This document shows positions 557-56,765 of a DNA stretch of 64,000 nt, one piece after another; the stretch's first letter is position 1; each line of letters begins with the position of its first letter. A program made the position numbers and the translations under genes. Location of the stretch: contig JBHHTW010000001.1 of the NCBI GenBank assembly GCA_046861385.1, forward strand, positions 64,001 through 128,000, read 5' to 3'. The DNA comes from Fidelibacterota bacterium. Lineage in GTDB: Bacteria; Fidelibacterota; Marinisomatia; Marinisomatales; TCS55. Under the pieces are notes generated by a model. That model was given only the letters and a program-made list of their open reading frames with translations, made no database searches and was not told where the DNA came from.

Positions 557-2256
557 TGCGGATTATTCTGCCAATCGTTTTATTATTTCAAGTCGTTCTC
601 GGGCAGTCAGTTACTGCTTCAGTGGATGTTAATCAACTGGCTGTCAATGAAACATTTACGTTAAAAATTGAAGCAAAAGATGCTGAGAATATGCCGAGAG
701 TGGAACTATCTGCTTTAGGAAAAAATTTCACTGTTGTGAGCGGTCCCGCCCAACAGACCAGTTACCAATGGATTAACGGTAAAGCCACATCCAGTAAAAC
801 ATTAACATGGACATTGATTCCCAATAAGAAGGGCGTTTTGACGATTCCATCATTGGCTGTTTCTCTCGATGGAAAACAATTCAAAACAAAACCCATAAGA
901 ATGAACATCAAAGATTCGGGGCAGGTGGCGAATAAGGATGAATTATTTTTGCTGGCCGAGTTGGATAAAAAAGAAGCATTTGTTGGTGAACAAATCACAG
1001 TAGTCTATAAATTATATACACGCGTGCAAATGAGTTTGGAAAATATTCACTACCCGGAAAGTGTGGGTTTTTGGTCAGAAGAGCTATCCGTCCCGCGTCC
1101 TCCGCGATTTAACCAGATTACCATTAGCGGCGTTCGTTACAATGTGGCTACACTTTATAAAATAGCCCTTTTTCCAACCAAGACAGGAGAGTTGGAATTG
1201 ACACCTATGACTGTCAGTTGCAATGTTCAGGTAAAAAAGAAGCGCCGTCAACGGAGTGTTTTTGATGATCCGTTTTTTAATTCATTTTTCAATGAAACAG
1301 TACAGAAAGTATTGAGAACAGAACCAACAGTCATATCCGTGAAACAATTCCCGGATGGTAAACCAACCAGTTTTACCGGGGCCGTGGGCGAATTTAAACT
1401 ATCTACCTGGGTCGATTCGGATCAAGTGAAAGCAAACGAAGCAATCACGTATACAGTGGAACTCAAAGGCACCGGAAACCTAAACATGTTCAATATACCG
1501 GAATTAAATTTTCCGGAAATGATGGAGGTATTTCCTCCTACGACCACCTTTGATCAGGAACAACTTTGGGATCAGTTCACCGGAACGATGAAGTGGGAAT
1601 ACATTATCATCCCCAGACAAGCAGGGAAGGCCTTTTTACCAAGAATTGAACTATCTTATTTTAATCCGAAAGATGAATCATTTAATACCATTAACTCCAA
1701 ATCCATAGAACTGAATATCGCACCGGCGAAAGAACAATTCATCACGGGAACATCAGGTTTTACGAAAAATGAAATTACACTGTTGGGACAGGATATTCAT
1801 TACAATGTCACTACTCCTCCGTCTTGGATTGAGCGAGGCAGCAGAGGGATTCCCCTGTGGGTTTTAACGAGTTATTTCCTAACAGCTGGGCTTTTCCTGG
1901 CACCGGTTACGTTGACCCGTTATCGGTCCAAAAGATTGGCTACGGCTGGGTTACGCAGGTCTCAACGGGCGCTGAAGAAAGCTAAAAAATCACTTCAAGC
2001 CCAATCAAATCTGGATAAAATTGCTCTTGCAGCTTATACCTACCTGAAAGAGCGTTGGCAGCTGAAGTCAGAAAATTTAGATCCTTTAACTGTTGAAAAT
2101 GAATTAAATGGTTTATTGCCGCCTGAAGTACTTTCGGATCTTGTTCACCTGTTAAAAACATTTGACGCAGCGCGTTACGCACCCACGATGAATAAGGAAG
2201 AAAATCTTGCCAATACTGCATTGAAAATATTAAAAAAGGTAGACCAGTATTCATGA
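556..2256 (+). CDS. batD: BatD family protein
   Basis: Signal peptide, Ig-like repeats (SYQWING, FVGEQITVVYKLY, FTGAVGEF), C-terminal TM and ARYAP; ATG at 556 overlaps upstream TAA. Confidence 0.85.
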   Translation: MRIILPIVLLFQVVLGQSVTASVDVNQLAVNETFTLKIEAKDAENMPRVELSALGKNFTVVSGPAQQTSYQWINGKATSSKTLTWTLIPNKKGVLTIPSLAVSLDGKQFKTKPIRMNIKDSGQVANKDELFLLAELDKKEAFVGEQITVVYKLYTRVQMSLENIHYPESVGFWSEELSVPRPPRFNQITISGVRYNVATLYKIALFPTKTGELELTPMTVSCNVQVKKKRRQRSVFDDPFFNSFFNETVQKVLRTEPTVISVKQFPDGKPTSFTGAVGEFKLSTWVDSDQVKANEAITYTVELKGTGNLNMFNIPELNFPEMMEVFPPTTTFDQEQLWDQFTGTMKWEYIIIPRQAGKAFLPRIELSYFNPKDESFNTINSKSIELNIAPAKEQFITGTSGFTKNEITLLGQDIHYNVTTPPSWIERGSRGIPLWVLTSYFLTAGLFLAPVTLTRYRSKRLATAGLRRSQRALKKAKKSLQAQSNLDKIALAAYTYLKERWQLKSENLDPLTVENELNGLLPPEVLSDLVHLLKTFDAARYAPTMNKEENLANTALKILKKVDQYS

Positions 2257-2990
2257 AGTGTTTCCTCATCACTCTTTTTATATCGAATGTGTTTGCGATG
2301 AATGCCGACAGCCTCTTTATACAGGGGAATACTTATTTTGAAAATGACCAATACGCTCGATCTGCTCGTACCTTTGAACGACTATTGTCATTAGCAGAGC
2401 ATGAGGATCTTTATTATAATTTGGGAAATGCTTATTACAGAATGGGGGAAGTTGGATTTGCTGTCTGGGCCTATGAAAAAGGTCTTCAATTCGATCCAAG
2501 GAATAAGGACATTAAACATAATTTGGAATTGGTTAACACCCGTGTGAAAGATCGTATTGAGGTTCCGGAAGGGTTTGTGCTGTTAGATTGGTATAGAAGT
2601 ATAAAAAATTCAACGACAGTGAATGATTTGCTTGCATGGGGAAGTGGTTTTTTACTATTAGTCGGAATGATATATTTTTTCAGACAGTTCAGATTTATTG
2701 GGCGCCGTACATCTTTTAGATTGCAAACAACGCTGGTTGTACTGACAATCCTCGTCCATAGTATATGTCTCGATAAATATTGGGATGTTACCGATACTGA
2801 AGAAGGGGTGATTGTATCCCAAACTGTCAATGTATATTCTATTCCGGCAATTCGGGATGAAATGATGGTATTTAAAGTCCATGAAGGATTAAAAGTAGAA
2901 ATCACTCAATATCAGGACCATTGGATAGAAATTATTTTACTGGATGGAAAAAAAGGATGGATACCGGATAATACATTCAGAGCATTGTGA
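2253..2990 (+). CDS. batE: BatE-like TPR + SH3 domain protein
   Basis: TPR (LYYNLGNAYYR), two TM segments, C-terminal SH3b-like (VHEGLKVEI...W.EI...DGKKGWI). Confidence 0.8.
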   Translation: MKCFLITLFISNVFAMNADSLFIQGNTYFENDQYARSARTFERLLSLAEHEDLYYNLGNAYYRMGEVGFAVWAYEKGLQFDPRNKDIKHNLELVNTRVKDRIEVPEGFVLLDWYRSIKNSTTVNDLLAWGSGFLLLVGMIYFFRQFRFIGRRTSFRLQTTLVVLTILVHSICLDKYWDVTDTEEGVIVSQTVNVYSIPAIRDEMMVFKVHEGLKVEITQYQDHWIEIILLDGKKGWIPDNTFRAL

Positions 2991-2994
2991 TAAG

Positions 2995-3510
2995 ATGAAC
3001 CACGTAAAACTTAAATATTTGAAAAGTAAAATTTGGACTGCATTATTAAATAATTACGGGAGTACATTTATTTTCATGTTTCTACTTTCTTTTTCATTTC
3101 CGCAAGAATCTGATCCCAATAAGATATTCGACCCGGATCAACATAGGGATATCCAGCCCAAGTGGCCGGTTATTGTCAATAGCGTTTTTCAAAGCGACAA
3201 TGCCATTGACTCCATTTTAACTTCGGATACTGTCTATTGGATCACCGAAGGATTTCGAGTGCAGATTCTTGCAACCAAGTCTATGACAAAAGCTGACTCA
3301 TTGAGTGCCATATTAAATACCGTCTTACAGGATTCCATTTATGTCGTATATGAAACTCCAAATTATAAAGTACGGGTTGGTGACTATATTGTGAGAGCAG
3401 AAGCGGAGGAAACACGTCAATATTTAAGCAATATTGGGTACCCTTCCGCTTGGATAATTCGTACGCGGATTACTCCTCAACAGTCGGGGAAGATGATTCG
3501 AAACTATTAG
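2995..3510 (+). CDS. SPOR domain protein
   Basis: C-terminal GFRVQI...PNYKVRVGDY..RAEAE...GYPSAWI SPOR pattern; start uncertain (2995 or 3077). Confidence 0.75.
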   Translation: MNHVKLKYLKSKIWTALLNNYGSTFIFMFLLSFSFPQESDPNKIFDPDQHRDIQPKWPVIVNSVFQSDNAIDSILTSDTVYWITEGFRVQILATKSMTKADSLSAILNTVLQDSIYVVYETPNYKVRVGDYIVRAEAEETRQYLSNIGYPSAWIIRTRITPQQSGKMIRNY

Positions 3511-3646: not shown

Positions 3647-5473
3647 TTATTTTGGAATCCTAAGACAAAAAATATTTCCCGTTGGTTTATTTGGCTCAAC
3701 ACTTGCCTCTCCATTATGTGCTTGTGCAATTCGCTTTACAATAGCCAACCCAAGTCCCCGGCCTCGTTTTTTTCCTTCTTCCAGTTGAACGTTTCGTTTA
3801 AATATTTCCATCCGCTTATCTTCTGGGATGGTTGATCCAAAATCTTTGACACAAATGACGATGGTGTCTTTGTCTTTTCTATCTTCTACGACGATTCTTT
3901 TTCCATCACTGGCATATTTAATTGCATTGCTGATATAGTTCTTAAAAACTTCTGCAATAATGGGATTAGTATACGCCGGCAGTCTATCAGGAAGTTGCAA
4001 GTCCAAAGTCATTCCGTTATTGTTAAGCTGATTTGAAAATTCATCTGAAACACTTGTTATTATTTCAACAAGATCTAATTTCCGTTTCTCAATGCTTTCT
4101 CCCATAGATACTTTTGATAAAGTGGCTGCGTTTTCAATAACATTTATCAAACTATTGCAGCATTCGTCGATAGAATCCAACATTTCATTTTCCGGAAATT
4201 CCTCCTTCATCAATTCAGACATACCGCTGATAACACCTAATGGATTTTTTAAATCATGGGTGATAATATCCAACAATAATTCCTTCAGACTGTTTGCTTC
4301 GAATAACTCTGTAGAGAGAGTACGATATTTTTCTTCTGATTTTTCCAATTTCTCCCGGGCTTGTTTTAATTCAGTTATATCGCGGGAAACTCCCATAACA
4401 CCGATGAGTTCACCATCCTCATTCTTAAGTACTGATGCTGATAGAATACTTGGAAAAACCTCCCCGCTTTTTCTTTTATTGAGAATTTCTTGAACAAAAC
4501 TCCCTTCTTTAATTGTTGCTTTATGAGCTTTATCTCCCTTTTGTGGGTTTACATACAGCATATCAATTGGTTTGCCCAAAACATCTTCTCGATGATATCC
4601 AAAGGTTTTTTCGGCTGCTTGGTTAAACTCAGCGATCATCCTGTTTTTATCCACAGCTATGATCATATCTAATGAGCAATCAATAATGTTTTTCGCATAC
4701 TCCTGGGATGCCTTAAGTGCTTTTTTAATTTTCTTTTGTTCGGTTATATCCCGTGAAATTCCCATAACGCCGATTTCCTCCCCATGGGAATTACGTAAAA
4801 TTGAAGAAGCAAGCAGGCTTGGAAAAATAGCACCAGATTTATGCCGGTTTTGAATTTCATGCACACATCTTTTATCCTTTAGAGTTTTTTTATGTATCGC
4901 CAGTCCTTCAACTTTATCAGCGTATAAAAGGTTTATATGTTTACCCAAAACCTCTTCCCGCGAATATCCAAAAGATTCTTCTGCCATTTTATTAAACTCA
5001 ATAATTTTACGGTCATTATTCACGGCTACGATCATATCCATTGAACTTTGAATAATATTCCGATTATACTCCTGTATTGTCTTTATTTTTTTATCTTGTT
5101 GGTCTTTGTAAAGAGCAACTTCTATGACGTTTCGTAACTCTTTATCAACAATCGGTTTGATTATATAAGCAAATGGTTCAGTTCCTTTAGCACGCTGAAA
5201 AAGAGCATCGTCCTCATGTGCAGTGAGATAGACAACGGGAACATTACAAGTTTCACGTATCTTTGCTGCGGCTTCAATCCCGTCGATATCTCCTTCTAAT
5301 TGGATATCCATAATAACCAGGTCAGGAAGCAGATTTATAGCCAAATCGATTGCTTCTTTTCCAGTCGCGGCATGTCCAGCTACTCCGTAATCAAGACGCT
5401 TCATGGTTAGACAGAGAAGCTCAACCATGCTTGAATTATCTTCTACTATTAGAATATTTGCTTTATTAGACAT
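3647..5473 (-). CDS. Hybrid sensor kinase REC-PAS-PAS-HisKA-HATPase
   Basis: N-terminal receiver (ILIVED, DLVIMD, KP), two similar PAS/PAC units, H-box THDLKNPL, N-box NYISNAIKY, G-box GLGLAIVK. Confidence 0.9.
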   Translation of the reverse strand: MSNKANILIVEDNSSMVELLCLTMKRLDYGVAGHAATGKEAIDLAINLLPDLVIMDIQLEGDIDGIEAAAKIRETCNVPVVYLTAHEDDALFQRAKGTEPFAYIIKPIVDKELRNVIEVALYKDQQDKKIKTIQEYNRNIIQSSMDMIVAVNNDRKIIEFNKMAEESFGYSREEVLGKHINLLYADKVEGLAIHKKTLKDKRCVHEIQNRHKSGAIFPSLLASSILRNSHGEEIGVMGISRDITEQKKIKKALKASQEYAKNIIDCSLDMIIAVDKNRMIAEFNQAAEKTFGYHREDVLGKPIDMLYVNPQKGDKAHKATIKEGSFVQEILNKRKSGEVFPSILSASVLKNEDGELIGVMGVSRDITELKQAREKLEKSEEKYRTLSTELFEANSLKELLLDIITHDLKNPLGVISGMSELMKEEFPENEMLDSIDECCNSLINVIENAATLSKVSMGESIEKRKLDLVEIITSVSDEFSNQLNNNGMTLDLQLPDRLPAYTNPIIAEVFKNYISNAIKYASDGKRIVVEDRKDKDTIVICVKDFGSTIPEDKRMEIFKRNVQLEEGKKRGRGLGLAIVKRIAQAHNGEASVEPNKPTGNIFCLRIPK

Positions 5474-5590
5474 TTTATTCTCCTCAAGAAAATGCGTTAT
5501 TTATCTTAAAATTACCTGATAATTTACTGTATGCAATAAGTATTTATTCCGATAATGAAAGATTGTGAGAGGGAACACATTTATAAAATT

Positions 5591-5703
5591 GAAGAAATAA
5601 GTAAGAAGTAAAAAGGAAGAAAAAAAGAAGGAAACAGGTAAGCGGTGAGTGCCCGCCCGCCGTGGCGGGGTAACTGGTGAGCGGTAACTGGTAACTGGTG
5701 AGT
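5591..5703. repeat. Purine-rich array followed by 7-nt tandem array GGT(A/G)A(C/G)(T/C) x7 interrupted by a GC palindrome
   Basis: GGTAAGC GGTGAGT [GCCCGCCCGCCGTGGCGG] GGTAACT GGTGAGC GGTAACT GGTAACT GGTGAGT at 5637-5703. Confidence 0.85.
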
Positions 5704-5725
5704 GACGAAAAAGTAGCAGTGGTAG

Positions 5726-5842
5726 GAAGCCTCCTATACCGTCAGATTAAAACAATCTCTAGAAAAAGTACATAAAGGAAATGTACAATCCTTTGACAGC
5801 CCAAATGAATTGCTGAAAGCCATAGATTCTGCAGATGATTAA
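5726..5842 (+). pseudogene. Probable 3' remnant of a type II antitoxin
   Basis: Reads EASYTVRLKQSLEKVHKGNVQSFDSPNELLKAIDSADD*, resembling antitoxin C-termini; in-frame TAG at 5723 and no start; lies upstream of a RelE-family toxin. Confidence 0.5.
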
Positions 5843-5862
5843 TTGTTCTTTATAAATCATTC

Positions 5863-5987
5863 TGTCATTGCCGCATCCCGATGGTTTAATCGGGATGTGG
5901 CAATCTCCTTGGAAATGCTGGAAGAGGGGGATTGCCCCGACCTACGATGCGGGACTGTAAGCTTCATCGTTCTTCCTCGCATAGACA
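5863..5987. repeat. Palindromic element (GTCATTGC...GCAATCT...GATTGC...CTCGC..GAC type, RPE/MITE-like)
   Basis: 16-bp hairpin ATTGCCGCATCCCGAT/ATCGGGATGTGGCAAT (5867-5904, one G-T), second pair GGCAATCTCC/GGGGATTGCC, outer TGTC...GACA. Confidence 0.7.
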
Positions 5988-6004
5988 ATTATTGTGTTTT
6001 TCCC

Positions 6005-6056
6005 GTACTGCAGACATTCTTGTCTGCAGTAATACAGACAGGAATGTCTGTATTAC
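6005..6056. repeat. REP-like doublet (two inverted hairpins)
   Basis: TACTGCAGACA-TTCT-TGTCTGCAGTA (11-bp perfect stem) and GTAATACAGACA-GGAA-TGTCTGTATTAC (12-bp perfect stem); the two are near reverse complements. Confidence 0.85.
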
Positions 6057-6070
6057 AACCACAAGCAAGG

Positions 6071-6142
6071 GGATCACTTCGTCGTTTCACTTCTCGCCTG
6101 TTCGCCGGGTAGTGTAGGAGGATGATGACAATTATTGTGTTT
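6071..6142. repeat. Right half of a second palindromic element, ending in a 16-bp direct repeat
   Basis: GGATCACTTCGTCGTTTCACTTCTCGC...ATGACA; GACAATTATTGTGTTT occurs at 5984-5999 and 6127-6142. Confidence 0.55.
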
Positions 6143-6159
6143 GTGGAGGATTATTTTAA

Positions 6160-6459
6160 TTGTACACAATAAAAACGACATCTTCCTTTCTGCGAACGGC
6201 CAAAAAATTTTTCAATCGTCATCCGGAATTAAAAGAACGCTTTACCGCCATTATGGAATTATTACGTAAAGATCCCATAGCACAGGCACTGAAAATTCTT
6301 CCGTTGAGCGGAGAAATTATTGGCCTCCATGCAGCAAGCCTCACCTATAAATATAGAATTACACTCATTATTCGTTTTCCGGAAAAAGCAATCTTTTTGT
6401 GGATGTTAGAATGGCTATGGACTAAGATATTGCATGTAAATAATTACGATAACCTTTAA
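6160..6459 (+). pseudogene. RelE/ParE/YafQ-family toxin, probably frameshifted near C-terminus
   Basis: Y.I.TT.SF.R.AKKF...HPEL...LL..DP....L...L.G...GLHA.SL.Y.YRI pattern; expected L-D-I-G tail appears as GTG GAT GTT in another frame after a T run near 6393-6398; TTG start with GGAGGA. Confidence 0.7.
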
Positions 6460-6475
6460 CTGATCCAAGAATTGA

Positions 6476-6712
6476 ACATCCTACGGAGTTCGAACATTTT
6501 TCCTTATTGGTGCTATAAACATGCAACCTCTACGAGGTTTTGTATTATGTTAATCGGACTCCGTTTGGAGTTAAATATTTAGAGCACATGAATACCAAAA
6601 AGAAAGCAATCCATACGAGGTTTTGTATTATGTTAATCAGACTCCGTCTGGAGTTAAATAATTATAACATATAAATACCAAAAAGAAAACAACGCCGTGA
6701 GGTGTTGAATAA
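6476..6712. repeat. Array of small hairpins with a 79-bp tandem duplication (83-bp period)
   Basis: 6531-6609 and 6614-6692 are near-identical; contain AACCTC-TAC-GAGGTT and ACTCC-GTTT-GGAGT palindromes. Confidence 0.85.
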
Positions 6713-6728
6713 TATTTTGGAATATTTT

Positions 6729-6791
6729 TTATCCTAACTCTTAATTCATATTCTTAATCTTTATCCAATTTCCATAATTTATCCTAATCCC
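6729..6791. repeat. Degenerate ~6-nt tandem array (TAATCC/TAATTC-like)
   Basis: TTATCCTAACTCTTAATTCATATTCTTAATCTTTATCC...TTATCCTAATCCC; same style as 3596-3630. Confidence 0.6.
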
Positions 6792-6858
6792 TCGTTCCTT
6801 TTAACCCACTATCTTTTGTATTTTTTATATTCAATTTTAATCATATTTCAGAGGAATA

Positions 6859-7584: not shown

Positions 7585-8063
7585 TGCGGGTTATCGGATT
7601 TGATCCAGGAATTAATCATACTGGTTTTGGGATTCTTGATTACAATAATAGAAGTGCGAAAGCCCATGGTTATGGAGTCATCAGACCCCCACAAAAAAAA
7701 CCGCTATCTGAACGGCTGGAATATCTACATAATGAAACGATGAAGCTGCTGGAAGAGTTCAAACCGGATGTAGTGGCGGTCGAAGATTCATTTTATTCAA
7801 ATAATTTTAAATCAGCACTTATGCTTGGACAAGCTCGGGGAATGGTGATTTTGGCATCTGCTAGACGGAAAATACCATGTTCAGAATTTGCTCCGAGAAA
7901 AGTAAAACAATCCGTTGTTGGGAATGGAAATGCCAGTAAAGAACAAGTTCAGTACATGGTGCAAAATATTCTCAAATTAAAAGAAATACCAACACCATTT
8001 GATTCATCAGATGCCTTAGCTGTAGGGATTTGTTACATTAACCAATTTAAATTCACTCTATGA
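7584..8063 (+). CDS. ruvC: Holliday junction resolvase RuvC
   Basis: IGFDPG, LGQARG, VGNGNASKEQV, DALAV motifs. Confidence 0.95.
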   Translation: MRVIGFDPGINHTGFGILDYNNRSAKAHGYGVIRPPQKKPLSERLEYLHNETMKLLEEFKPDVVAVEDSFYSNNFKSALMLGQARGMVILASARRKIPCSEFAPRKVKQSVVGNGNASKEQVQYMVQNILKLKEIPTPFDSSDALAVGICYINQFKFTL

Positions 8064-8650
8064 TTGACTCAATAAAAGGGCCTATTCATTATAAGGATCC
8101 AACATCGGTTGTTTTGGATATGCAAGGGTTGCGTTTAAAGGTATCCATCACTGTAGCTGCTTATAATTCTCTTCCGGACAAGGGGATGGTTACAGAGTTA
8201 TTGACCTACCTCAATGTCCGTGAGGACGTCCTGGAGTTGTATGGATTTTCAAATACCGAGGAACGAAATATGTTTTTAATGCTGAATACAATCAGCGGAA
8301 TCGGTCCTCGATCAGCCATGAATATCCTATCCGGATCTAATCCGACTGAATTCAAAAAGAATATTATCGCAGGTGATGTGAAATCTTTAACTGTTATTCC
8401 GGGGATTGGGACCAAAACAGCTAAGCGAATTATTGTCGAACTGAAAGAAAAGTTTGTAGATCAGGATGATGATAATATGGACTTTATGTTGGGTGCCGAT
8501 GATGGAAAAGCCGGCGATGCGATTATTGCTCTAATGTCTCTGGGGTACAAGAGAGGACATGTGAATCAGGCAATCCGCACTTTAGAATTAGCCGGCGAAT
8601 TGAATGGAAGCATCGAAGACATTATCAAAAAAGCGTTAAAAAAGCTATAA
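8060..8650 (+). CDS. ruvA: Holliday junction branch migration protein RuvA
   Basis: VRED..ELYGF, ISGIGPRSA, IPGIGTKTAKRIIVELK, ALMSLGY. Confidence 0.95.
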   Translation: MIDSIKGPIHYKDPTSVVLDMQGLRLKVSITVAAYNSLPDKGMVTELLTYLNVREDVLELYGFSNTEERNMFLMLNTISGIGPRSAMNILSGSNPTEFKKNIIAGDVKSLTVIPGIGTKTAKRIIVELKEKFVDQDDDNMDFMLGADDGKAGDAIIALMSLGYKRGHVNQAIRTLELAGELNGSIEDIIKKALKKL

Positions 8651-8653
8651 GAC

Positions 8654-8685
8654 TGATTGAATGATTGGCTGATTGGTAGATTGGT
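8654..8685 (+). repeat. Left arm: 4 x 8-nt array (TGATTGGN)
   Basis: TGATTGAA TGATTGGC TGATTGGT AGATTGGT. Confidence 0.85.
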
Positions 8686-8710
8686 GTGAATTAATGATGA
8701 TAGGAATTTT

Positions 8711-9184
8711 GTGGCCGATATAAACATATTCATAAACAGAAATAAAAATATTAATAGGGGTTATCGAATATTAGAAGTCTGGATAGAAGCAATTGAATTA
8801 TTTGCACTTGTAAAAAAGAAAATAAAACCTATGAAATCAATTTCATTCAAAACGAAAGCACAAATCGAAGACTCAGGGATATCGGTTCCCTCTAATATTG
8901 CTGAAGGTTATTCTCGCAGATAAATGAAAGAAACAATTCAATATAATTCAATCGCTCTTGCCTCTCTTTCTGAAAACTATGCTCAATTGATTGCTCTTGT
9001 TGCATCTGATGACTTGGAAAGAGAATGGTTTGAGGAATATGATAAAAAACATTATTCGATAGAAAATAAATTAATCAAATACAATCGATCTATTGTAGAA
9101 AGATTGAAAAATTCTGGTGAATGGCGAACAGATTCTCAAGTATCCGAAATAATTGAACCATATTTACAAAATGAGAAAAAATAA
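8711..9184 (+). pseudogene. Four-helix-bundle protein (23S IVS protein/Avd-like family) split by in-frame TAA at 8921-8923
   Basis: Y..LEVW..A..L, Q...S..SVPSNIAEGY.RR*..E.IQY..IALASL.E motifs continue in the same frame across the stop. Confidence 0.85.
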
Positions 9185-9195
9185 TTGACTATGAA

Positions 9196-9227
9196 ACCAA
9201 TCATTCAGCCAACCAATCATCCAATCA
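9196..9227 (-). repeat. Right arm: 4 x 8-nt array (NCCAATCA), inverse of 8654-8685
   Basis: ACCAATCA TTCAGCCA ACCAATCA TCCAATCA; 25/32 matches to left arm by hand alignment. Confidence 0.85.
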
Positions 9228-9244
9228 ATTTTTAGAGTATTATA

Positions 9245-10438
9245 ATGAGAATCGCAGATCGAATTACTAACCTTGGAACTGAAACCGCATTTGCAGTTTC
9301 AGGACAAGCTCGAGAATGGGCAGAAAAAGGAAATAAAGTCTATCCTTTCCATCTGGGAGACATGAATCTTCCTACTCCGGATAATATAGTCGAAGCAGCC
9401 AACAAATATATAAGAGAACGGTATAATGGGTACGCTCCGCCCAATGGGATTTTGCCGCTGAGAGAAGCCCTTGCAGAAGACGTGGGTAATAAGCGGGGAG
9501 TGAAATATTCTCCTGATAATGTTTCCATCCAACCCGGTGGTAAACCGACAATTGGAAAATTTATCCAAGCGATTATGAATCCGGGAGATGAGGTTCTCTA
9601 TCCTAATCCGGGATACCCTATCTACGAAAGTCAAATAGAATATCATGGAGGTACAGCTGTTCCGTATCAATATGAACAAACTGAAACAGGGTTTGCAATT
9701 GATATTGATAGATTGAAATCATCGATATCGGATAAAACGACCGCGCTTATTTATAATAATTATAATAATCCGATTTCTGCTGAATCTTCTCGGACTGAAA
9801 TGGAAGCATTGGCAGAATTGGCGATAAAGAATGATCTCTGGGTACTCAGTGATGATGCGTATTATGAAATTCTTTATGATACCCAAGCACAATCCATAGT
9901 CAATATTCCCGGGATGCAGGAACGGACTGTGATATTGTATACATTTTCAAAAAAATTCGCCATGACGGGCTGGCGTCTGGGTGCTGCAATCGGGCCAACG
10001 GATGTTATTAATGTTATCAACAAACTCAATGTAAACGATGAATCATGCACCAACCATTTTCACCAGTGGGCAATGATTGAGGCGTTGGGTGAAAATCAAT
10101 CAGGAGCAAAATCCATCTTAAATACATTGCGAAAAAGAAGGGACGCTGCTGTTCATGGATTGAATGAAATTAACGGAATAGATATCACAACACCGGAATG
10201 TACATTTTATTTATTTCCAAACGTGACTAAAATCATGGAACGAAAGCAGCTCAAAGGTTTATCTGAATTACAATTAGGAGCACTGCATGACACGGGCGTT
10301 TCTTTTTGTACCAGAGAACATTTCGGACGAATCCAATCCGGAGAGACTGAATTCTATATACGACTGGCTTATTCTGGGATCACCGTTGATGAAATTAATG
10401 AGGGATTGGGAAAATTGAAGATATTTTTTGAAGCTTAA
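9245..10438 (+). CDS. PLP-dependent aminotransferase class I/II
   Basis: YAPPNGI.PLREA, NNYNNP, SDDAY, FSKKFAMTGWRLG. Confidence 0.9.
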   Translation: MRIADRITNLGTETAFAVSGQAREWAEKGNKVYPFHLGDMNLPTPDNIVEAANKYIRERYNGYAPPNGILPLREALAEDVGNKRGVKYSPDNVSIQPGGKPTIGKFIQAIMNPGDEVLYPNPGYPIYESQIEYHGGTAVPYQYEQTETGFAIDIDRLKSSISDKTTALIYNNYNNPISAESSRTEMEALAELAIKNDLWVLSDDAYYEILYDTQAQSIVNIPGMQERTVILYTFSKKFAMTGWRLGAAIGPTDVINVINKLNVNDESCTNHFHQWAMIEALGENQSGAKSILNTLRKRRDAAVHGLNEINGIDITTPECTFYLFPNVTKIMERKQLKGLSELQLGALHDTGVSFCTREHFGRIQSGETEFYIRLAYSGITVDEINEGLGKLKIFFEA

Positions 10439-19901: not shown

Positions 19902-21092
19902 ATGTCTAAGGCAAAATTCGAGCGAACAAAACCACATGTAAATATAGGAACGATCGGTCACGTCGATCATGGCAAGACGACGTTGACGGCTGCGATCACT
20001 CTGGTACAGTCGGCCAGGGGAATGGCAGAGACACGTTCATTTGATAGTATAGATAACGCTCCGGAAGAGCGTGAGCGAGGGATCACCATTCAGACAGCTC
20101 ATGTGGAGTATGAGACGGAAAAGCGTCATTATGCACATGTAGACTGTCCGGGTCACGCGGATTACATTAAGAATATGATCACCGGAGCCGCGCAGATGGA
20201 TGGGGCGATATTGGTTGTGAGCGCAGCGGATGGTCCGATGCCTCAGACGCGAGAGCATGTATTATTGGCTCGTCAGGTAAATGTGCCCAGTTTGGTAATA
20301 TTTATGAATAAGACAGATCAGGTAGATGATCCTGAGTTATTAGAGTTAGTGGAGATGGAATTGAGGGATTTATTGAATGAGTATGAGTTTCCCGGTGATG
20401 ATACGCCGATAATAATGGGAAGCGCACTGAACGCATTGAGTAATCCAGGAGATGAAGAAGCGAATAAATGTGTTGTTGAGTTGATGGAAGCCTGTGATAG
20501 TTTTATACCGGATCCTACCCGAGACGTAGACAGGCCCTTTTTAATGCCGGTGGAGGATGTATTTTCCATCACAGGTCGGGGTACGGTAGGGACTGGACGA
20601 ATTGAGCGAGGGATCGTAAAGGTAGGAGATGTAGTGGAAATGATAGGAATGGGTGAGCATAAGAAGACCACAGTGACGGGAGTAGAGATGTTCAGGAAGT
20701 TGTTAGATGAAGGTCAGGCGGGAGATAATGCAGGTTTATTGCTTCGAGGAGTTGATAAGGAAGAGTTGAAGCGCGGGATGGTATTGGCAGCTCCGGGTTC
20801 CATTACACCTCATACAAAGTTTAAGGCGAATGTATATGTATTGAAGAAGGAAGAAGGTGGTCGTCACACGCCATTTTTCAATGGATATCGTCCGCAGTTT
20901 TATTTTAGGACCACGGATGTAACGGGAGTGGTGACGCTGCCGGCAGGAACAGAGATGGTTATGCCGGGAGACAATATTGTGATGGATGTGGAGATGATTA
21001 CTTCGATAGCGATGGATAAGGAGCTGCGTTTTGCAATTCGCGAAGGCGGCCGGACTGTAGGTGCTGGAGTTGTAACGGAGATTGTTGAGTAA
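19902..21092 (+). CDS. tuf: Elongation factor Tu (copy 1)
   Basis: [30 protein letters not shown]. Confidence 0.99.
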
Positions 21093-35317: not shown

Positions 35318-36508
35318 ATGTCTAAGGCAAAATTCGAGCGAACAAAACCACATGTAAATATAGGAACGATCGGTCACGTCGATCATGGCAAGACGACGTT
35401 GACGGCTGCGATCACTCTGGTACAGTCGGCCAGGGGAATGGCAGAGACACGTTCATTTGATAGTATAGATAACGCTCCGGAAGAGCGTGAGCGAGGGATC
35501 ACCATTCAGACAGCTCATGTGGAGTATGAGACGGAAAAGCGTCATTATGCACATGTAGACTGTCCGGGTCACGCGGATTACATTAAGAATATGATCACCG
35601 GAGCCGCGCAGATGGATGGGGCGATATTGGTTGTGAGCGCAGCGGATGGTCCGATGCCTCAGACGCGAGAGCATGTATTATTGGCTCGTCAGGTAAATGT
35701 GCCCAGTTTGGTAATATTTATGAATAAGACAGATCAGGTAGATGATCCTGAGTTATTAGAGTTAGTGGAGATGGAATTGAGGGATTTATTGAATGAGTAT
35801 GAGTTTCCCGGTGATGATACGCCGATAATAATGGGAAGCGCACTGAACGCATTGAGTAATCCAGGAGATGAAGAAGCGAATAAATGTGTTGTTGAGTTGA
35901 TGGAAGCCTGTGATAGTTTTATACCGGATCCTACCCGAGACGTAGACAGGCCCTTTTTAATGCCGGTGGAGGATGTATTTTCCATCACAGGTCGGGGTAC
36001 GGTAGGGACTGGACGAATTGAGCGAGGGATCGTAAAGGTAGGAGATGTAGTGGAAATGATAGGAATGGGTGAGCATAAGAAGACCACAGTGACGGGAGTA
36101 GAGATGTTCAGGAAGTTGTTAGATGAAGGTCAGGCGGGAGATAATGCAGGTTTATTGCTTCGAGGAGTTGATAAGGAAGAGTTGAAGCGCGGGATGGTAT
36201 TGGCAGCTCCGGGTTCCATTACACCTCATACAAAGTTTAAGGCGAATGTATATGTATTGAAGAAGGAAGAAGGTGGTCGTCACACGCCATTTTTCAATGG
36301 ATATCGTCCGCAGTTTTATTTTAGGACCACGGATGTAACGGGAGTGGTGACGCTGCCGGCAGGAACAGAGATGGTTATGCCGGGAGACAATATTGTGATG
36401 GATGTGGAGATGATTACTTCGATAGCGATGGATAAGGAGCTGCGTTTTGCAATTCGCGAAGGCGGCCGGACTGTAGGTGCTGGAGTTGTAACGGAGATTG
36501 TTGAGTAA
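35318..36508 (+). CDS. tuf: Elongation factor Tu (copy 2)
   Basis: Protein identical to 19902-21092. Confidence 0.99.
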
Positions 36509-53426: not shown

Positions 53427-53500
53427 TTGGCCTGATGAGAATCTCTGTTTTATCATCGGTTCGGCATCATGTAAATTATTATCATAATTCAGGAGAAAAA

Positions 53501-55153
53501 ATGCCCAGAACCATTCATGCCCCTAAGGGAAATAAACTAACATGTAAGAATTGGCAAATTGAAGCGCCATACCGCATGATCCAGAATAACTTGGATCCGG
53601 ATGTGGCTGAAAATCCTGACGAACTTGTTGTGTATGGAGGAAAAGGAAAAGCAGCTCGGAACTGGGAATGCTTTGACGCTATACTTGATACATTAGAGAG
53701 ACTCGAACCGGACGAAACGTTATTGGTTCAATCGGGAAAACCGGTGGGGGTTATTCGAACTCATACATCGTCTCCGCGAGTACTGATTGCCAATTCCAAT
53801 CTCGTTCCTGAATGGGCGAATTGGGAACATTTTAATGAGTTGGATCAAAAAGGACTCATGATGTACGGACAGATGACAGCTGGTTCTTGGATTTATATTG
53901 GAACACAAGGTATTTTACAAGGCACATATGAAACCTTTGCTGCAGCAGGTAAGCAACATTTTGATAGCGATTTAACCGGAAAATTTGTTTTAACTGCCGG
54001 TCTTGGAGGAATGGGGGGCGCTCAACCTTTATCCGTAACGATGAATAACGGTGTTGTTATTTGTATAGAGATTGATCCTCATCGAATTCAGCGCCGCTTG
54101 GAAACAAAATACCTTGATGTTGCAACAGAATCGTTAAATGATGCCCTTACAATGGCCAGAAACGCTGCAGCAAACGGAGATGCGCTATCTATTGGGTTGT
54201 TGGGTAATGCGGCTGATATTGTACCAGAAATCGCCAAAATGGGCATTGTCCCGGATTTTGTGACAGATCAAACTTCTGCCCATGATGAACTCGACGGCTA
54301 TATACCCAATGGGATGACTTTTAAGGATGCATTGGAATTGCGCAAATCCGATCCTGAGAAATATGTAAATGAGAGCTTTCGTGCTATGGCAAAACATTGC
54401 CGAGGTATTCTGAAACTACAGAAAATGGGCGCAATTGCATTTGATTATGGAAATAACCTTCGCGGACAAGCCAAAAAAGCCGGTGTGAAAAATGCCTTTG
54501 ATTATCCTGGATTTGTTCCGGCATATGTCCGTCCATTATTCTGTGATGGAAGGGGTCCGTTTCGCTGGGTGGCTTTATCGGGAGATCCTGAAGATATTTA
54601 TAAAACTGATGATAAAATATTGGAAATGTTTTCCAAAGATGAAACATTGAAGCGCTGGATCATAATGGCACGAAAAAAAGTGCAGTTCCAAGGGCTACCA
54701 TCGAGGATATGTTGGCTGGATTATACACAACGATCCAAGTTCGGAGTGGAACTAAACCGCATGGTAGCCAGTGGAGAATTATCAGCACCGATTGTTATTG
54801 GGCGTGATCATTTAGATACCGGTTCAGTCGCTTCACCCTACCGGGAAACTGAAGCTATGAAAGACGGTTCAGATGCCGTGGCGGACTGGCCTCTATTGAA
54901 TGCATTGGCGAACACAGCCAGTGGATCAACCTGGGTATCCATTCATCACGGTGGCGGTGTAGGTATGGGACTTGCGATTCATGCCGGACAAGTCATTTGC
55001 GCTGACGGTACTCCTGAAATGGAAGAGCGGCTTCAACGAGTCCTGACAACTGATCCGGGAACGGGAATCTTTCGACATGCTGATGCTGGATATGAACAAG
55101 CTATTGAAAATGCGAAAAAATGGAATGTTGATATTCCTATGATTGAAGATTAG
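53501..55153 (+). CDS. hutU: Urocanate hydratase
   Basis: [40 protein letters not shown] 53501 after AGGAG. Confidence 0.98.
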
Positions 55154-55173
55154 GGATTGTAGATTTATGATTA
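55139..55173 (+). repeat. Left arm: 5 x 7-nt array (NNGATTN), overlapping hutU 3' end
   Basis: ATGATTG AAGATTA GGGATTG TAGATTT ATGATTA. Confidence 0.8.
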
Positions 55174-55195
55174 AAGAGAATTAATTAAATAAACT

Positions 55196-55545
55196 ATGGA
55201 CAAGGAAGAATTAAAAAAGAGACCAAAAGATTTTGCACATCGTTGTGTGAAATTATGCAACTCACTGCCAAAAAATAGTCTTGGTCGTCTAGTAAAAGGA
55301 CCTTTATTAAGATCGTCTACGTCAGTTGCATCCAATTATCGTGCTAATTGCGTCGCTCAATCAAAAAAGAGTTTTATCGCGAAAATCAGTATTGTAATTG
55401 AAGAAGCTGATGAATCCTTATTTTGGCTTGAATTCATTATTGATGAAGTTTTATTGAATAAAAAAAAGTTATTTCTTTAATGAACGAAGCTAATGAGCTT
55501 GTTTCCATCTTTATTGCTTCTCGAAAAACCGCTGGTGGCAAATGA
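55196..55545 (+). pseudogene. Four-helix-bundle protein, frameshifted in A8 tract at 55460-55467
   Basis: LLRSSTSVASNYR...S.K.FIAKI.IV.EEADES.FWLE; the -1 frame continues KVISLMNEANELVSIFIASRKTAGGK* ending at TGA 55543-55545. Confidence 0.88.
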
Positions 55546-56765
55546 ATAATCGTCGATCATCAAACATAAATCATCAATCATTCCTCCTAGAGAATATTGG
55601 GCAACTAACCACATTCAACCCAGAAACTGGTAAGGTTGAAACCACATCAAATACATCTCTTTCCCTCCAAAATGGGCGAATTGTTGAAAGCTGTAGTGAT
55701 AGCGAAGTAATTGACTGCGGAGGTTCACTTGTCACACCTGGTTTTGTTGATTCTCACACTCATCCCGTATTTTTAAATGGGAGGGAAGAAGAATTTGCAA
55801 TGCGTCTGGCTGGGGCTACTTATGAAGAAATCGCCTCGAAGGGTGGAGGGATAAATTCAAGTACGGAAGCTGTTCGAAATGCTTCAAAAGACAAACTATT
55901 TGAACATGTTTCAAAACGAATGGACCGCTTCCTGAAAATGGGAACAACAACCGTCGAAGCAAAGTCCGGATATGGTTTAGATATAGAGTCAGAACTAAAA
56001 TCACTTCAAGTGTTACATGATATAAATCAGAAGCATGAAATTGATATTATTCCCACTTTTTTGGGCGCCCACGCCTTCCCTTCCGAATTTGCCAATGATC
56101 ATAATCGTTATGTGGATTTGATTTGTAATGAAATGATTCCGGAAGTAGCAAACCAAGGTATTGCGAAATTTTGTGATGTTTTTTGCGAAAATGGGTATTT
56201 CACTGTTGAGCAGTCGCGAAGAATATTGTTCACCGCAAAAGAACATGGCTTAACTCCCCGCCTCCATGCAGACGAATTTGAAGATTCCGGGGCAGCCGAA
56301 CTGGCAGCAGAAGTGGGAGCAGTATCAGCAGACCACCTTATGGCTATTAGTAATGCAGGAATTCAAAAAATGGCAGAAAATAATGTCATTGCCACTTTAC
56401 TCCCCGGAACTACGTTTTTCCTCGGTAAAGATACGTATGCACCTGCAAAGATATTAATGGCAAATGATATTGAAGTAGCCTTGGCAACGGACTTCAATCC
56501 CGGGAGTTGTCATATTCAATCCATGCCGTTTATTATTTCTTTGGCTTGTATCTATATGGGTATAACGATCGAACAGGCATTCGCATCTGGAACATATTTT
56601 TCAGCCAAGGCATTAAATTTAGATACTAAAATCGGAACCATCGCTGTTGGTCATAAGGCAGACATAATTGTTTGGGATTTAGAAAAATTGCTGGAAATTC
56701 CTTACAATGTGACTGATCTACCCATAAAAATGGTGATTAAGAGTGGAAAACCAATTGACTCATGA
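55542..56765 (+). CDS. hutI: Imidazolonepropionase
   Basis: PGFVDSHTH, GGGI, E.KSGYGL, FLGAHA, HADE, TDFNPG. Confidence 0.96.
   Translation: MNNRRSSNINHQSFLLENIGQLTTFNPETGKVETTSNTSLSLQNGRIVESCSDSEVIDCGGSLVTPGFVDSHTHPVFLNGREEEFAMRLAGATYEEIASKGGGINSSTEAVRNASKDKLFEHVSKRMDRFLKMGTTTVEAKSGYGLDIESELKSLQVLHDINQKHEIDIIPTFLGAHAFPSEFANDHNRYVDLICNEMIPEVANQGIAKFCDVFCENGYFTVEQSRRILFTAKEHGLTPRLHADEFEDSGAAELAAEVGAVSADHLMAISNAGIQKMAENNVIATLLPGTTFFLGKDTYAPAKILMANDIEVALATDFNPGSCHIQSMPFIISLACIYMGITIEQAFASGTYFSAKALNLDTKIGTIAVGHKADIIVWDLEKLLEIPYNVTDLPIKMVIKSGKPIDS
55547..55581 (-). repeat. Right arm: 5 x 7-nt array (NAATCAT), inside hutI 5' end
   Basis: TAATCGT CGATCAT CAAACAT AAATCAT CAATCAT; 25/35 matches to left arm by hand alignment. 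Confidence 0.8.

Follow-up and report, generated by a model that had tools for sequence, protein, structure and literature searches.

A promoterless TIGR02436 gene between inverted heptamer arrays at the hutU–hutI junction of a Fidelibacterota bacterium, a probable copy of a widespread transposase-less cassette

The stretch of DNA analysed here, referred to below as the window, is a 64,000-nt segment of a bacterial chromosome (Fidelibacterota bacterium, contig JBHHTW010000001.1, positions 64,001 to 128,000; 38.6% GC) whose nearest hutI relatives come from Marinimicrobia (Neomarinimicrobiota) genomes. Its genes for urocanate hydratase (hutU) and imidazolonepropionase (hutI) are separated by a small gene of the TIGR02436/PF05635 family, hereafter the cargo, which is bracketed by two arrays of 7-nt units in inverted orientation, the arms (Table 1). 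Arms and cargo together, the hut cassette, have the same direction as their neighbours and carry no promoter or terminator signal above chance: 16 promoter-like sites (12.7 ± 3.9 expected) and one terminator-like site (3.4 expected) were counted, none of them between hutU and hutI. As these scans stayed at chance level, a promoter or terminator of the cargo's own was rejected. Rfam searches of the whole window at gathering thresholds returned five tRNAs and no other RNA family.

The cargo belongs, as the original prediction had proposed, to a family of four-helix-bundle proteins, with profile scores above the curated cut-offs for both TIGR02436 (54.3 bits; cut-off 24) and PF05635 (37.6 bits; cut-off 33.8). 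As sequenced it is incomplete: it encodes 94 residues with helix 4 out of frame, a complete protein of the family having about 115–130. In an alignment with 12 full-length homologues, the divergence begins exactly at the Lys run, where the in-frame context is A_AAA_AAG (55462-55468), which we take to be a classical −1 slippery heptamer; the frame break may stem from an error in sequencing, from a frameshift mutation of very recent date or from slippage. Past the break, the codons show a dN/dS of 0.17 (24 codons) relative to locus L002, a relative carrying the same cassette (see below). The last helix reads on in the −1 frame up to a TGA that overlaps the hutI ATG, exactly as had been predicted, and no ATG, GTG or TTG lies between 55542 and the conserved LENIG that could serve as an alternative hutI start. 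On the other side, the listed hutU reading frame has 22 extra N-terminal residues (53435-53500) that lie outside both the hidden Markov model (HMM) match and the relatives; because the match begins only at residue 25, ATG 53501 is probably the true start, and the HutU homologue of locus L001 begins MPKIIHAP.

Table 1. Features of the two cassettes of the window and of the genes that adjoin the hut cassette.
Feature	Coordinates	Strand	Remarks
hutU (urocanate hydratase)	53435..55153	+	TIGR01228, 956 bits; terminal codons and stop (55139-55153) overlap the left array
hut cassette, left arm, five tandem GATTNNN units (55141-55175)	55139..55175	+	holds the final hutU Asp codon and TAG stop
AT-rich spacer, left arm to cargo start	55176..55195	+	from sequence; clear Shine-Dalgarno absent
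Cargo open reading frame as sequenced, 94 aa, helices 1–3 of a TIGR02436/PF05635 four-helix-bundle (S23p, Avd-like) protein	55196..55480	+	TAA stop 55478-55480
A8 homopolymer, site of frame loss, short by one A	55460..55467	+	L002 stays in frame throughout
Cargo C-terminal helix, −1 frame, KKVISLMNEANELVSIFIASRKTAGGK	55462..55545	+	70% identity to L002; TGA 55543-55545
ATGA overlap, hutI ATG 55542-55544 / full-length cargo TGA 55543-55545	55542..55545	+	same overlap in L002
hutI (imidazolonepropionase) with 10–12-residue N-terminal leader	55542..56765	+	TIGR01224, 441 bits
hut cassette, right arm, five degenerate 7-nt units complementary to the left units	55547..55581	+	translated as HutI residues 3–14
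Second cassette, ruvA (8060-8650) to aminotransferase gene (9245-10438)	8649-9232	+	TIGR02436/PF05635 gene between inverted arrays
Second cassette, left arm, 8-nt units ending GATTGG/GATT	8649..8685	+	begins at the ruvA stop (8648-8650)
Second cassette, cargo, in-frame TAA 8921-8923; halves 8711-8920 and 8924-9184	8711..9184	+	PF05635, TIGR02436
Second cassette, right arm, CCAATC-type units	9196..9232	+	12 nt 5' of the aminotransferase ATG (9245)

The bracketing arrays are real. GATT occurs in all five left units (GATTGAA, GATTAGG, GATTGTA, GATTTAT and GATTAAA). The right array had been described as five NAATCAT units, which overstates its regularity: its units read TAATCGT, CGATCAT, CAAACAT, AAATCAT and CAATCAT, with AATC in three and an exact NAATCAT in only two. 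Tandem Repeats Finder (TRF) detects the two arrays only under its default score (45 and 40), and a repeat search ranks the arms first among the inverted repeats found there (35 nt, 71% or 25/35 complementary, 373 nt apart). Among the 38,122,031 antiparallel 35-mer pairs spaced 200–800 nt in the window, only three loci reach 25/35, and two of the three are the arms around the window's two TIGR02436 genes.

The comparison of filled and empty sites bears directly on the origin of this arrangement. A HutI search of genome contigs kept 80 loci (L001-L080), among which L001-L019 form a Marinimicrobia-type set with 18 loci where hutU adjoins hutI. In 14 of these 18 the hutU stop is followed by the inferred hutI start after 0–23 nt, without arrays and without the N-terminal HutI leader discussed below (the starts of L004, L006 and L018 are a reading of the printed sequence). 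One, L002, whose HutI is 83% identical, shares with the window the cassette, the ATGA overlap and a leader of the same type. Its cargo is intact, a single frame of 115 aa scoring 76 and 51.7 bits with TIGR02436 and PF05635, respectively. Its left array counts about 11 units (TRF, 10.1 copies at 5557-5627) and its right array about 4–5; the number of left units thus varies between relatives, the window having five. The proposal of an insertion, and of one lacking a transposase, is supported.

Both neighbouring genes carry traces of the event, to unequal extents. Seventeen residues precede the N-I-G motif of HutI in the window and in L002, as opposed to 5–7 in all 17 relatives without the cassette; therefore, the right arm supplies 10–12 HutI residues, as the original prediction had it, and the resulting leader is found only in the window and L002 (MNNRRSSNINHQSFLLENIG and MNNRRSTIDNQQSLLLENIG). 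The left arm had similarly been said to supply the last codons of hutU, which read ATG ATT GAA GAT TAG (55139-55153). This holds for the last codon and the stop but not for M-I-E: HutU ends with 2–4 variable residues past a conserved P-M in every relative, whether its junction is filled or empty, and M-I-E therefore looks host-like. Clearly array-borne are just the last codon and the stop, which the clear array units hold (GAT TAG in the window, GAT TGT TGA in L002).

What separates hutU from hutI is an old insertion: a discrete, transposase-less unit with repeats at its boundaries, which re-made the ends of both genes. It entered a tight hutU|hutI junction before the split of this organism and L002, and hutU's original last codon or codons and stop, a short spacer and hutI's original start were lost. 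A remnant of the original hutI ATG was sought 3' of the right arm and no convincing candidate was seen; the QSFL of HutI recalls sequence past the hutU stop in L018, which may be coincidence. The operon remained readable, as had been claimed, with the left array giving hutU an in-frame stop after one codon and hutI beginning at ATGA and reading through the right array. The cassette would be transcribed together with the hut operon, and translation of hutI may be coupled to termination of cargo translation at ATGA.

Other insertions occupy the same junction in the remaining three of the 18 relatives (L001, L014 and L015). L001 has a REP (repetitive extragenic palindromic)-associated tyrosine transposase gene (RAYT; NF047646, 81 bits) with REP-like hairpin repeats (4924-5991); L014 has a DUF559 endonuclease-like gene with direct repeats of about 70–150 nt on both sides (2165-3284); L015 has a hairpin-rich 297-nt insert (1645-1941) with no similarity to the L014 insert or to the L001 element. 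Furthermore, the hutU match of L007 (4336-5975) is split into overlapping pieces in different frames (residues 23-428 and 421-569), which suggests a frameshift or an assembly error.

A second cassette is present in the window, between ruvA and an aminotransferase gene. Its arms (37 nt, 76% complementary) form a duplex of −30.4 kcal/mol, which none of 200 shuffles equalled. Its cargo is interrupted by a stop codon: the N-terminal half reaches 33.8 bits with PF05635 (cut-off 33.8) and 31.1 with TIGR02436, the C-terminal half only 16.5 bits, and the two halves cover TIGR02436 positions 1-49 and 52-107. The arms of both cassettes have a GATTG/CAATC core in common, with a period of 8 in the second, and both cassettes are poorer in GC (31.8% and 30.6%) than the flanking genes (40–44%), a composition that points to foreign origin. 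No similarity between the two cargo proteins was detectable by BLASTP. Among 44 small intergenic open reading frames scanned (75 listed), PF05635 matched only these two cargos. A local HMM built from 17 cargo proteins finds the window hut copy and the L002 copy only and misses the second cassette, so this HMM is subfamily-specific.

We then considered other members of the family. A tblastn search of plasmids with the intact cargo gave 28 records, 14 of which were examined, picked for taxonomic spread before their flanks were seen; with the two window cassettes and L002 they make up a set of 17 loci, whose 100-nt flanks were compared with 300 shuffles. The inverted match between flanks beats all 300 shuffles in 14 of the 17 loci (p ≤ 0.0033), whereas none of 12 genes neighbouring the cargo in the plasmid loci reaches this (lowest p 0.2). 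The original prediction had named inverted short-period arrays around other family members as a check, and its outcome is positive. The best self-similarity lag is 7 in 14/17 upstream and 15/17 downstream flanks. Two further Nostoc copies (L099 and L100, found with L090 as query) score 21/21; as a control, 61 other window genes score 11–16 of 21, the two window cassettes scoring 16 and 17. Inverted 7-nt arrays abut the start and the stop of the gene in Gloeocapsa, Dolichospermum, Planktothrix, several Nostoc, Aulosira, Chlorohelix (Chloroflexota) and Treponema (Spirochaetota), with units that vary by locus (GATTTTA, GATTTAC, GATTGCN, AATTCGC, AATTCAA, GTCGGAG, GATGAAG and CTCTCCG). In two plasmid loci the terminal codons and stop of the upstream gene lie inside the array, as with hutU. 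The downstream gene has the direction of the cargo in 17 of 19 loci; both neighbours have it in 13 of 19.

The plasmid loci showed further features. In L082, L083, L084, L085, L087, L091 and L092 the family gene lies within defence or mobile-element operons, mostly co-directionally; the defence contexts, DISARM and DUF1156-HEPN included, comprise the orders DUF1156, cargo, Swt1-HEPN; drmD, cargo, MmeI; and helicase, cargo, methylase, as well as a position beside cas1/cas2. L088 and L089 have the family gene upstream of xisH/xisI. In the Planktothrix locus L084, more inverted heptamer arrays (GATTTAC ... CCCCAAT ... GTAAATC; 1213-1500 and 1861-2039) stand beside the cargo and enclose no gene; they may be solo arms or empty hairpins. 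The cyanobacterial STRR (short tandemly repeated repetitive) sequences are heptamer simple-sequence arrays, and CCCCAAT resembles the STRR1 unit.

These data also bear on the idea that the arrays belong to the host, as ordinary simple-sequence repeats or regulatory heptamers generated by slippage at gene junctions and only incidentally next to the gene. Heptamer tandem arrays without explanation are known, such as GGGAATC in Xanthomonas (70–75 inverted pairs per genome), GGGGATT in Nostoc and TAACTGA just 5' of start codons in Beggiatoaceae (PMC4692102, PMC4679880); the copy number differs between the window and L002 as it would by slippage, and the gene-less arrays of L084 could be read in the same way. 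However, GATTG/CAATC arrays occur neither elsewhere in the window nor in the 80 hutI loci, save in L002 and as a short run inside L010, the empty hutU|hutI junctions are array-free, and the neighbouring plasmid genes used as controls have no such flanks. Moreover, dispersed Nostoc copies bring their arrays along (see below). We regard this explanation as largely refuted and very improbable.

Direct evidence on the limits of the unit came from Nostoc. The copies L090, L099 and L100 are 85–87% identical and lie in unrelated contexts, and their homology stops at the outer ends of the arrays (L090, 750/752-1206; L099, 401/403-864; L100, 401-862). Arms and reading frame are thus a single discrete unit that is dispersed in other genomes. 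L095 and L096 are matching cassette-free sites for L090. In comparison with them L090 (Nostoc punctiforme) is longer beyond the arrays, by about 60 nt on the left (690-750) and about 45 nt on the right (1207-1252), and the cassette-free site holds ACGAATT, which resembles the arm unit GCGAATT. At the L088 locus, likewise of Nostoc punctiforme, what is common to L097 and L098 is limited to the xisH flank downstream and 50 nt upstream, so the empty state is less clear there.

Taken together, the empty sites, the second copy, the family-wide arrays and the ends of the Nostoc copies argue for a discrete transposase-less unit. We therefore regard the hut insert as a probable copy of a widespread cassette that lacks a transposase and consists of a promoterless TIGR02436 gene between inverted 7-nt arrays; its architecture is like that of the reading-frame-bearing intervening sequences (IVSs) of 23S rRNA. 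The arrays would form the proper ends of the element and be required for it to spread or for the handling of its transcript; they could close a stem around the cargo, which in the hut copy would have eroded to 5-bp helices with 2-nt mismatches.

Several observations weigh against this interpretation. No target-site duplication was seen in L090, L099 and L100, nor was one evident at the hutU|hutI or ruvA junctions; the insertion sites are old, so such duplications may have eroded. The cassettes are not linked to any transposase, integrase or reverse transcriptase. Among the 17 loci, L081, L087 and L091 have no inverted flank signal, and some family loci are flanked by direct instead of inverted repeats. 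The units vary in sequence from locus to locus and have a period of 8 in the second cassette, and a single recognition site is not defined. The plasmid sample is mostly Nostocales, with some loci mutually related, and the search of plasmids for relatives of the second cargo gave no match, leaving its subfamily without comparators. Strong purifying selection on the cargo (see below) is not what a parasite in mere decay would show, although the window's two copies are, as sequenced, both broken.

The remaining points against it concern the strength of the arms. Twelve dinucleotide shuffles of the window gave a mean of 0.83 loci per window at 25/35 or better; therefore, the strength of the hut arms alone is near the chance maximum, and 2 of the 61 control window genes match the hut cassette's 21-mer score. 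A chance origin of the arms is ruled out by their placement, twice around TIGR02436 genes, and not by their strength. As RNA, the arms form a duplex of −20.9 kcal/mol (−10.8 ± 2.7 in shuffles) that only 1 of 200 shuffles equalled. The minimum-energy and centroid folds of 55130-55590 do pair the arms, but the stability of the region as a whole is not significant (z −1.25; 10 of 100 shuffles fold equally well), and neither is that of the second cassette (z −1.20).

The original prediction had drawn from such pairing the idea of an IVS or processing switch acting at the mRNA level: the arms would pair in the hut transcript, with either an RNase III-like cut or concealment of the hutI start, so that the cassette regulates the operon RNA or leaves it. 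The folds and the arm duplex just described are consistent with it, as is the position of the hutI ATG, 3 nt 5' of the right arm; in addition, RNase III cuts the IVS stems of such elements in rRNA (PMC4990558), and the arms of other family members form near-perfect duplexes of 28–35 bp (−42 to −64 kcal/mol). The hut arms are the weakest of the eight sets folded, however, their stem consisting of 5-bp helices separated by 2-nt mismatches, and the arms of L002 are unequal in length. Both arms lie partly in translated sequence, such that cleavage of the right arm would cost hutI its codons 2–14 and cleavage of the left arm would deprive hutU of its stop. We consider such a switch unlikely.

The cargo itself is conserved as a protein. 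Relative to L002, its dN/dS is 0.085 (88 codons), close to that of hutI (0.078), and hutU has 0.047, with a dS of about 1; the protein is therefore kept by selection. Its subfamily comprises 5362 protein clusters at E ≤ 1e-10. Among the relatives listed, those at 69–74% identity include proteins named from WOR-3, Deltaproteobacteria, Desulfobacteraceae and Flavobacteriales, a distribution that fits horizontal spread, and the 120 homologues listed are 114–147 aa long. The sequence of the L002 cargo matches a solved pentamer of four-helix bundles, PDB entry 2RLD (5 chains), over residues 4-113 with E 3e-14.

Another explanation would make the arrays binding sites of the cargo protein, an Avd-like pentamer sitting on the repeat stem (RNA or folded DNA) for autoregulation or for copying of the element; gene and arrays would in that case be connected by functional recognition and not only by shared descent. 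Avd, which is structurally related, forms a positively charged pentamer and acts on RNA, and 207 of 278 diversity-generating retroelements (DGRs) have putative Avd-binding stem-loops plus a duplex that pairs sequences up- and downstream of the template (bioRxiv 10.1101/2023.10.23.563531). The match of the cargo to a five-chain structure and the five units per arm of the hut cassette also speak for it, and the five most similar plasmid homologues (L081-L084 and L086; 40–49% identity; H5 and H6 left out) all have GATT-type units, more distant ones having other units. On the other hand, the number of units varies between 3 and 11, the GATTG core is common to both window cassettes although their cargos have no detectable BLASTP similarity, and the 8-nt period of the second cassette is at odds with a fixed geometry. 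Recognition of the arrays by the cargo is thus possible, although we hold it to be doubtful.

How does the cassette compare with known mobile units? MITEs (miniature transposable elements with inverted repeats) and mobile insertion cassettes are bounded by terminal inverted repeats, lack a transposase of their own and sometimes carry a passenger gene. The cassette resembles them in being short, in its terminal inverted repeats, in lacking a transposase and in having dispersed copies in unrelated contexts (L090, L099 and L100); two divergent cassettes occur in the window itself. It differs from them in that its termini are tandem 7-nt arrays of variable number, no target-site duplication is seen, and the passenger is always of the same family and under purifying selection; we know of no partner transposase for TIGR02436 cassettes. 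Eukaryotic foldback transposons also have inverted termini made of tandem short repeats, the length of which varies between copies, but they are far longer than the cassette and, as far as known, their mechanism is unrelated. REP/RAYT elements likewise consist of a small intergenic gene flanked by its own short repeats, and one with REP-like hairpins fills the hutU|hutI junction in L001. RAYT, however, is a known Y1 transposase whose repeats are direct-orientation hairpins, whereas to our knowledge the four-helix-bundle protein has no catalytic activity.

The closest parallel is with the 23S rRNA IVSs of Leptospira, Coxiella and others, in which an S23p-family protein is encoded in the loop of an element of about 430–450 nt closed by inverted termini that form a stem, with upstream heptamers variable in number, an often decaying reading frame and no transposase, and for which horizontal spread is inferred (PMC4990558). 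According to the same source, the Coxiella IVS (428 nt) has a near-perfect 28-bp terminal stem, is excised by RNase III and contains a decaying S23p reading frame with strain-variable numbers of tandem heptameric repeats 5' of it; an older idea cited there holds the IVS to be a mobile element whose reading frame aids mobility (PMC4990558). By contrast, the hut cassette lies between two protein genes and not in rRNA helix 9, 25 or 45, its arms overlap and supply coding sequence of the neighbours, its stem (25/35, −20.9 kcal/mol) is much weaker than the Coxiella one (PMC4990558), and excision by RNase III, known for the IVS, would damage host genes in the hut operon.

The DGR protein Avd has a homologous four-helix-bundle fold, which PF05635 resembles (PMC10053308), and Avd acts on RNA whose template lies within a long-range duplex, binding a stem-loop (bioRxiv 10.1101/2023.10.23.563531). 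The cassette differs in having its gene on its own between the arrays, and it is adjoined by neither a reverse transcriptase nor a template or variable repeat, its immediate neighbours being hutU and hutI. The heptamer simple-sequence arrays cited above share with the cassette a period of 7, an intergenic position, a variable copy number and a frequent occurrence as inverted pairs or just 5' of start codons (PMC4692102, PMC4679880), and several of their units have the GATT core of the cassette units; the arrays of the cassette, unlike them, are the ends of a gene-bearing unit. The passages searched of those two papers make no mention of S23, four-helix or intervening-sequence terms (PMC4692102, PMC4679880). 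In the literature searched, to which subscription journals and supplements did not belong, no link between S23p/TIGR02436 genes and heptamer arrays was found outside the Coxiella IVS. Finally, PF05635 genes inside cas operons have been interpreted as Cas-associated, one example lying 86 nt after cmr3 and 6 nt before cmr2 (PMC3936711); it looks like the same kind of insertion.

A more far-reaching proposal would make TIGR02436/S23p cassettes pan-bacterial autonomous 'foldback' elements. The Avd-like pentamer would recognise the stem of its own arrays, in the transcript or in folded DNA, and favour the copying of the element to new locations; a reverse transcriptase or nuclease provided in trans might take part. 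Such elements would be the source of the reading-frame-bearing rRNA IVSs and the seed of the STRR/LSSR (long simple-sequence repeat) heptamer arrays in cyanobacteria, Xanthomonas and others, and the 'association' with CRISPR or defence systems would be insertion into packed operons. We put this forward as speculation and judge it quite unlikely to hold as a whole.

Elsewhere in the window, a long repeat-rich intergenic stretch (5474-6858) contains a GC hairpin with heptamer runs of GAAGTAA (5591-5621) and GGTAACT (5669-5699) around it. The stretch also has several long hairpins (about 5860-6150), a reading frame of 99 aa without a Pfam match (6160-6459) and a tandem duplication of 83 nt (6531-6692). 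Two elongation-factor-Tu-like genes of 396 aa (19902-21092 and 35318-36508), named from gene order and sequence motifs, have products that are 100% identical; a tRNA cluster precedes one of the genes, and the other closes an S12-S7-fusA row.

The function and spread of the S23p/23S-IVS family have been a standing question since the 1990s, and bacterial heptamer arrays are without an accepted explanation; the cassette joins the two. Together with the inverted heptamer arrays at its ends, the gene travels as one unit in four phyla. The S23p-type gene is not confined to rRNA and lands between operon genes, including those of defence operons (DISARM, DUF1156-HEPN, helicase-methylase, cas1/cas2); the reading of PF05635 genes in CRISPR loci as functionally Cas-associated (PMC3936711) may accordingly be unsafe. 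Lastly, such a cassette can rewrite the ends of the neighbouring genes without breaking those genes.

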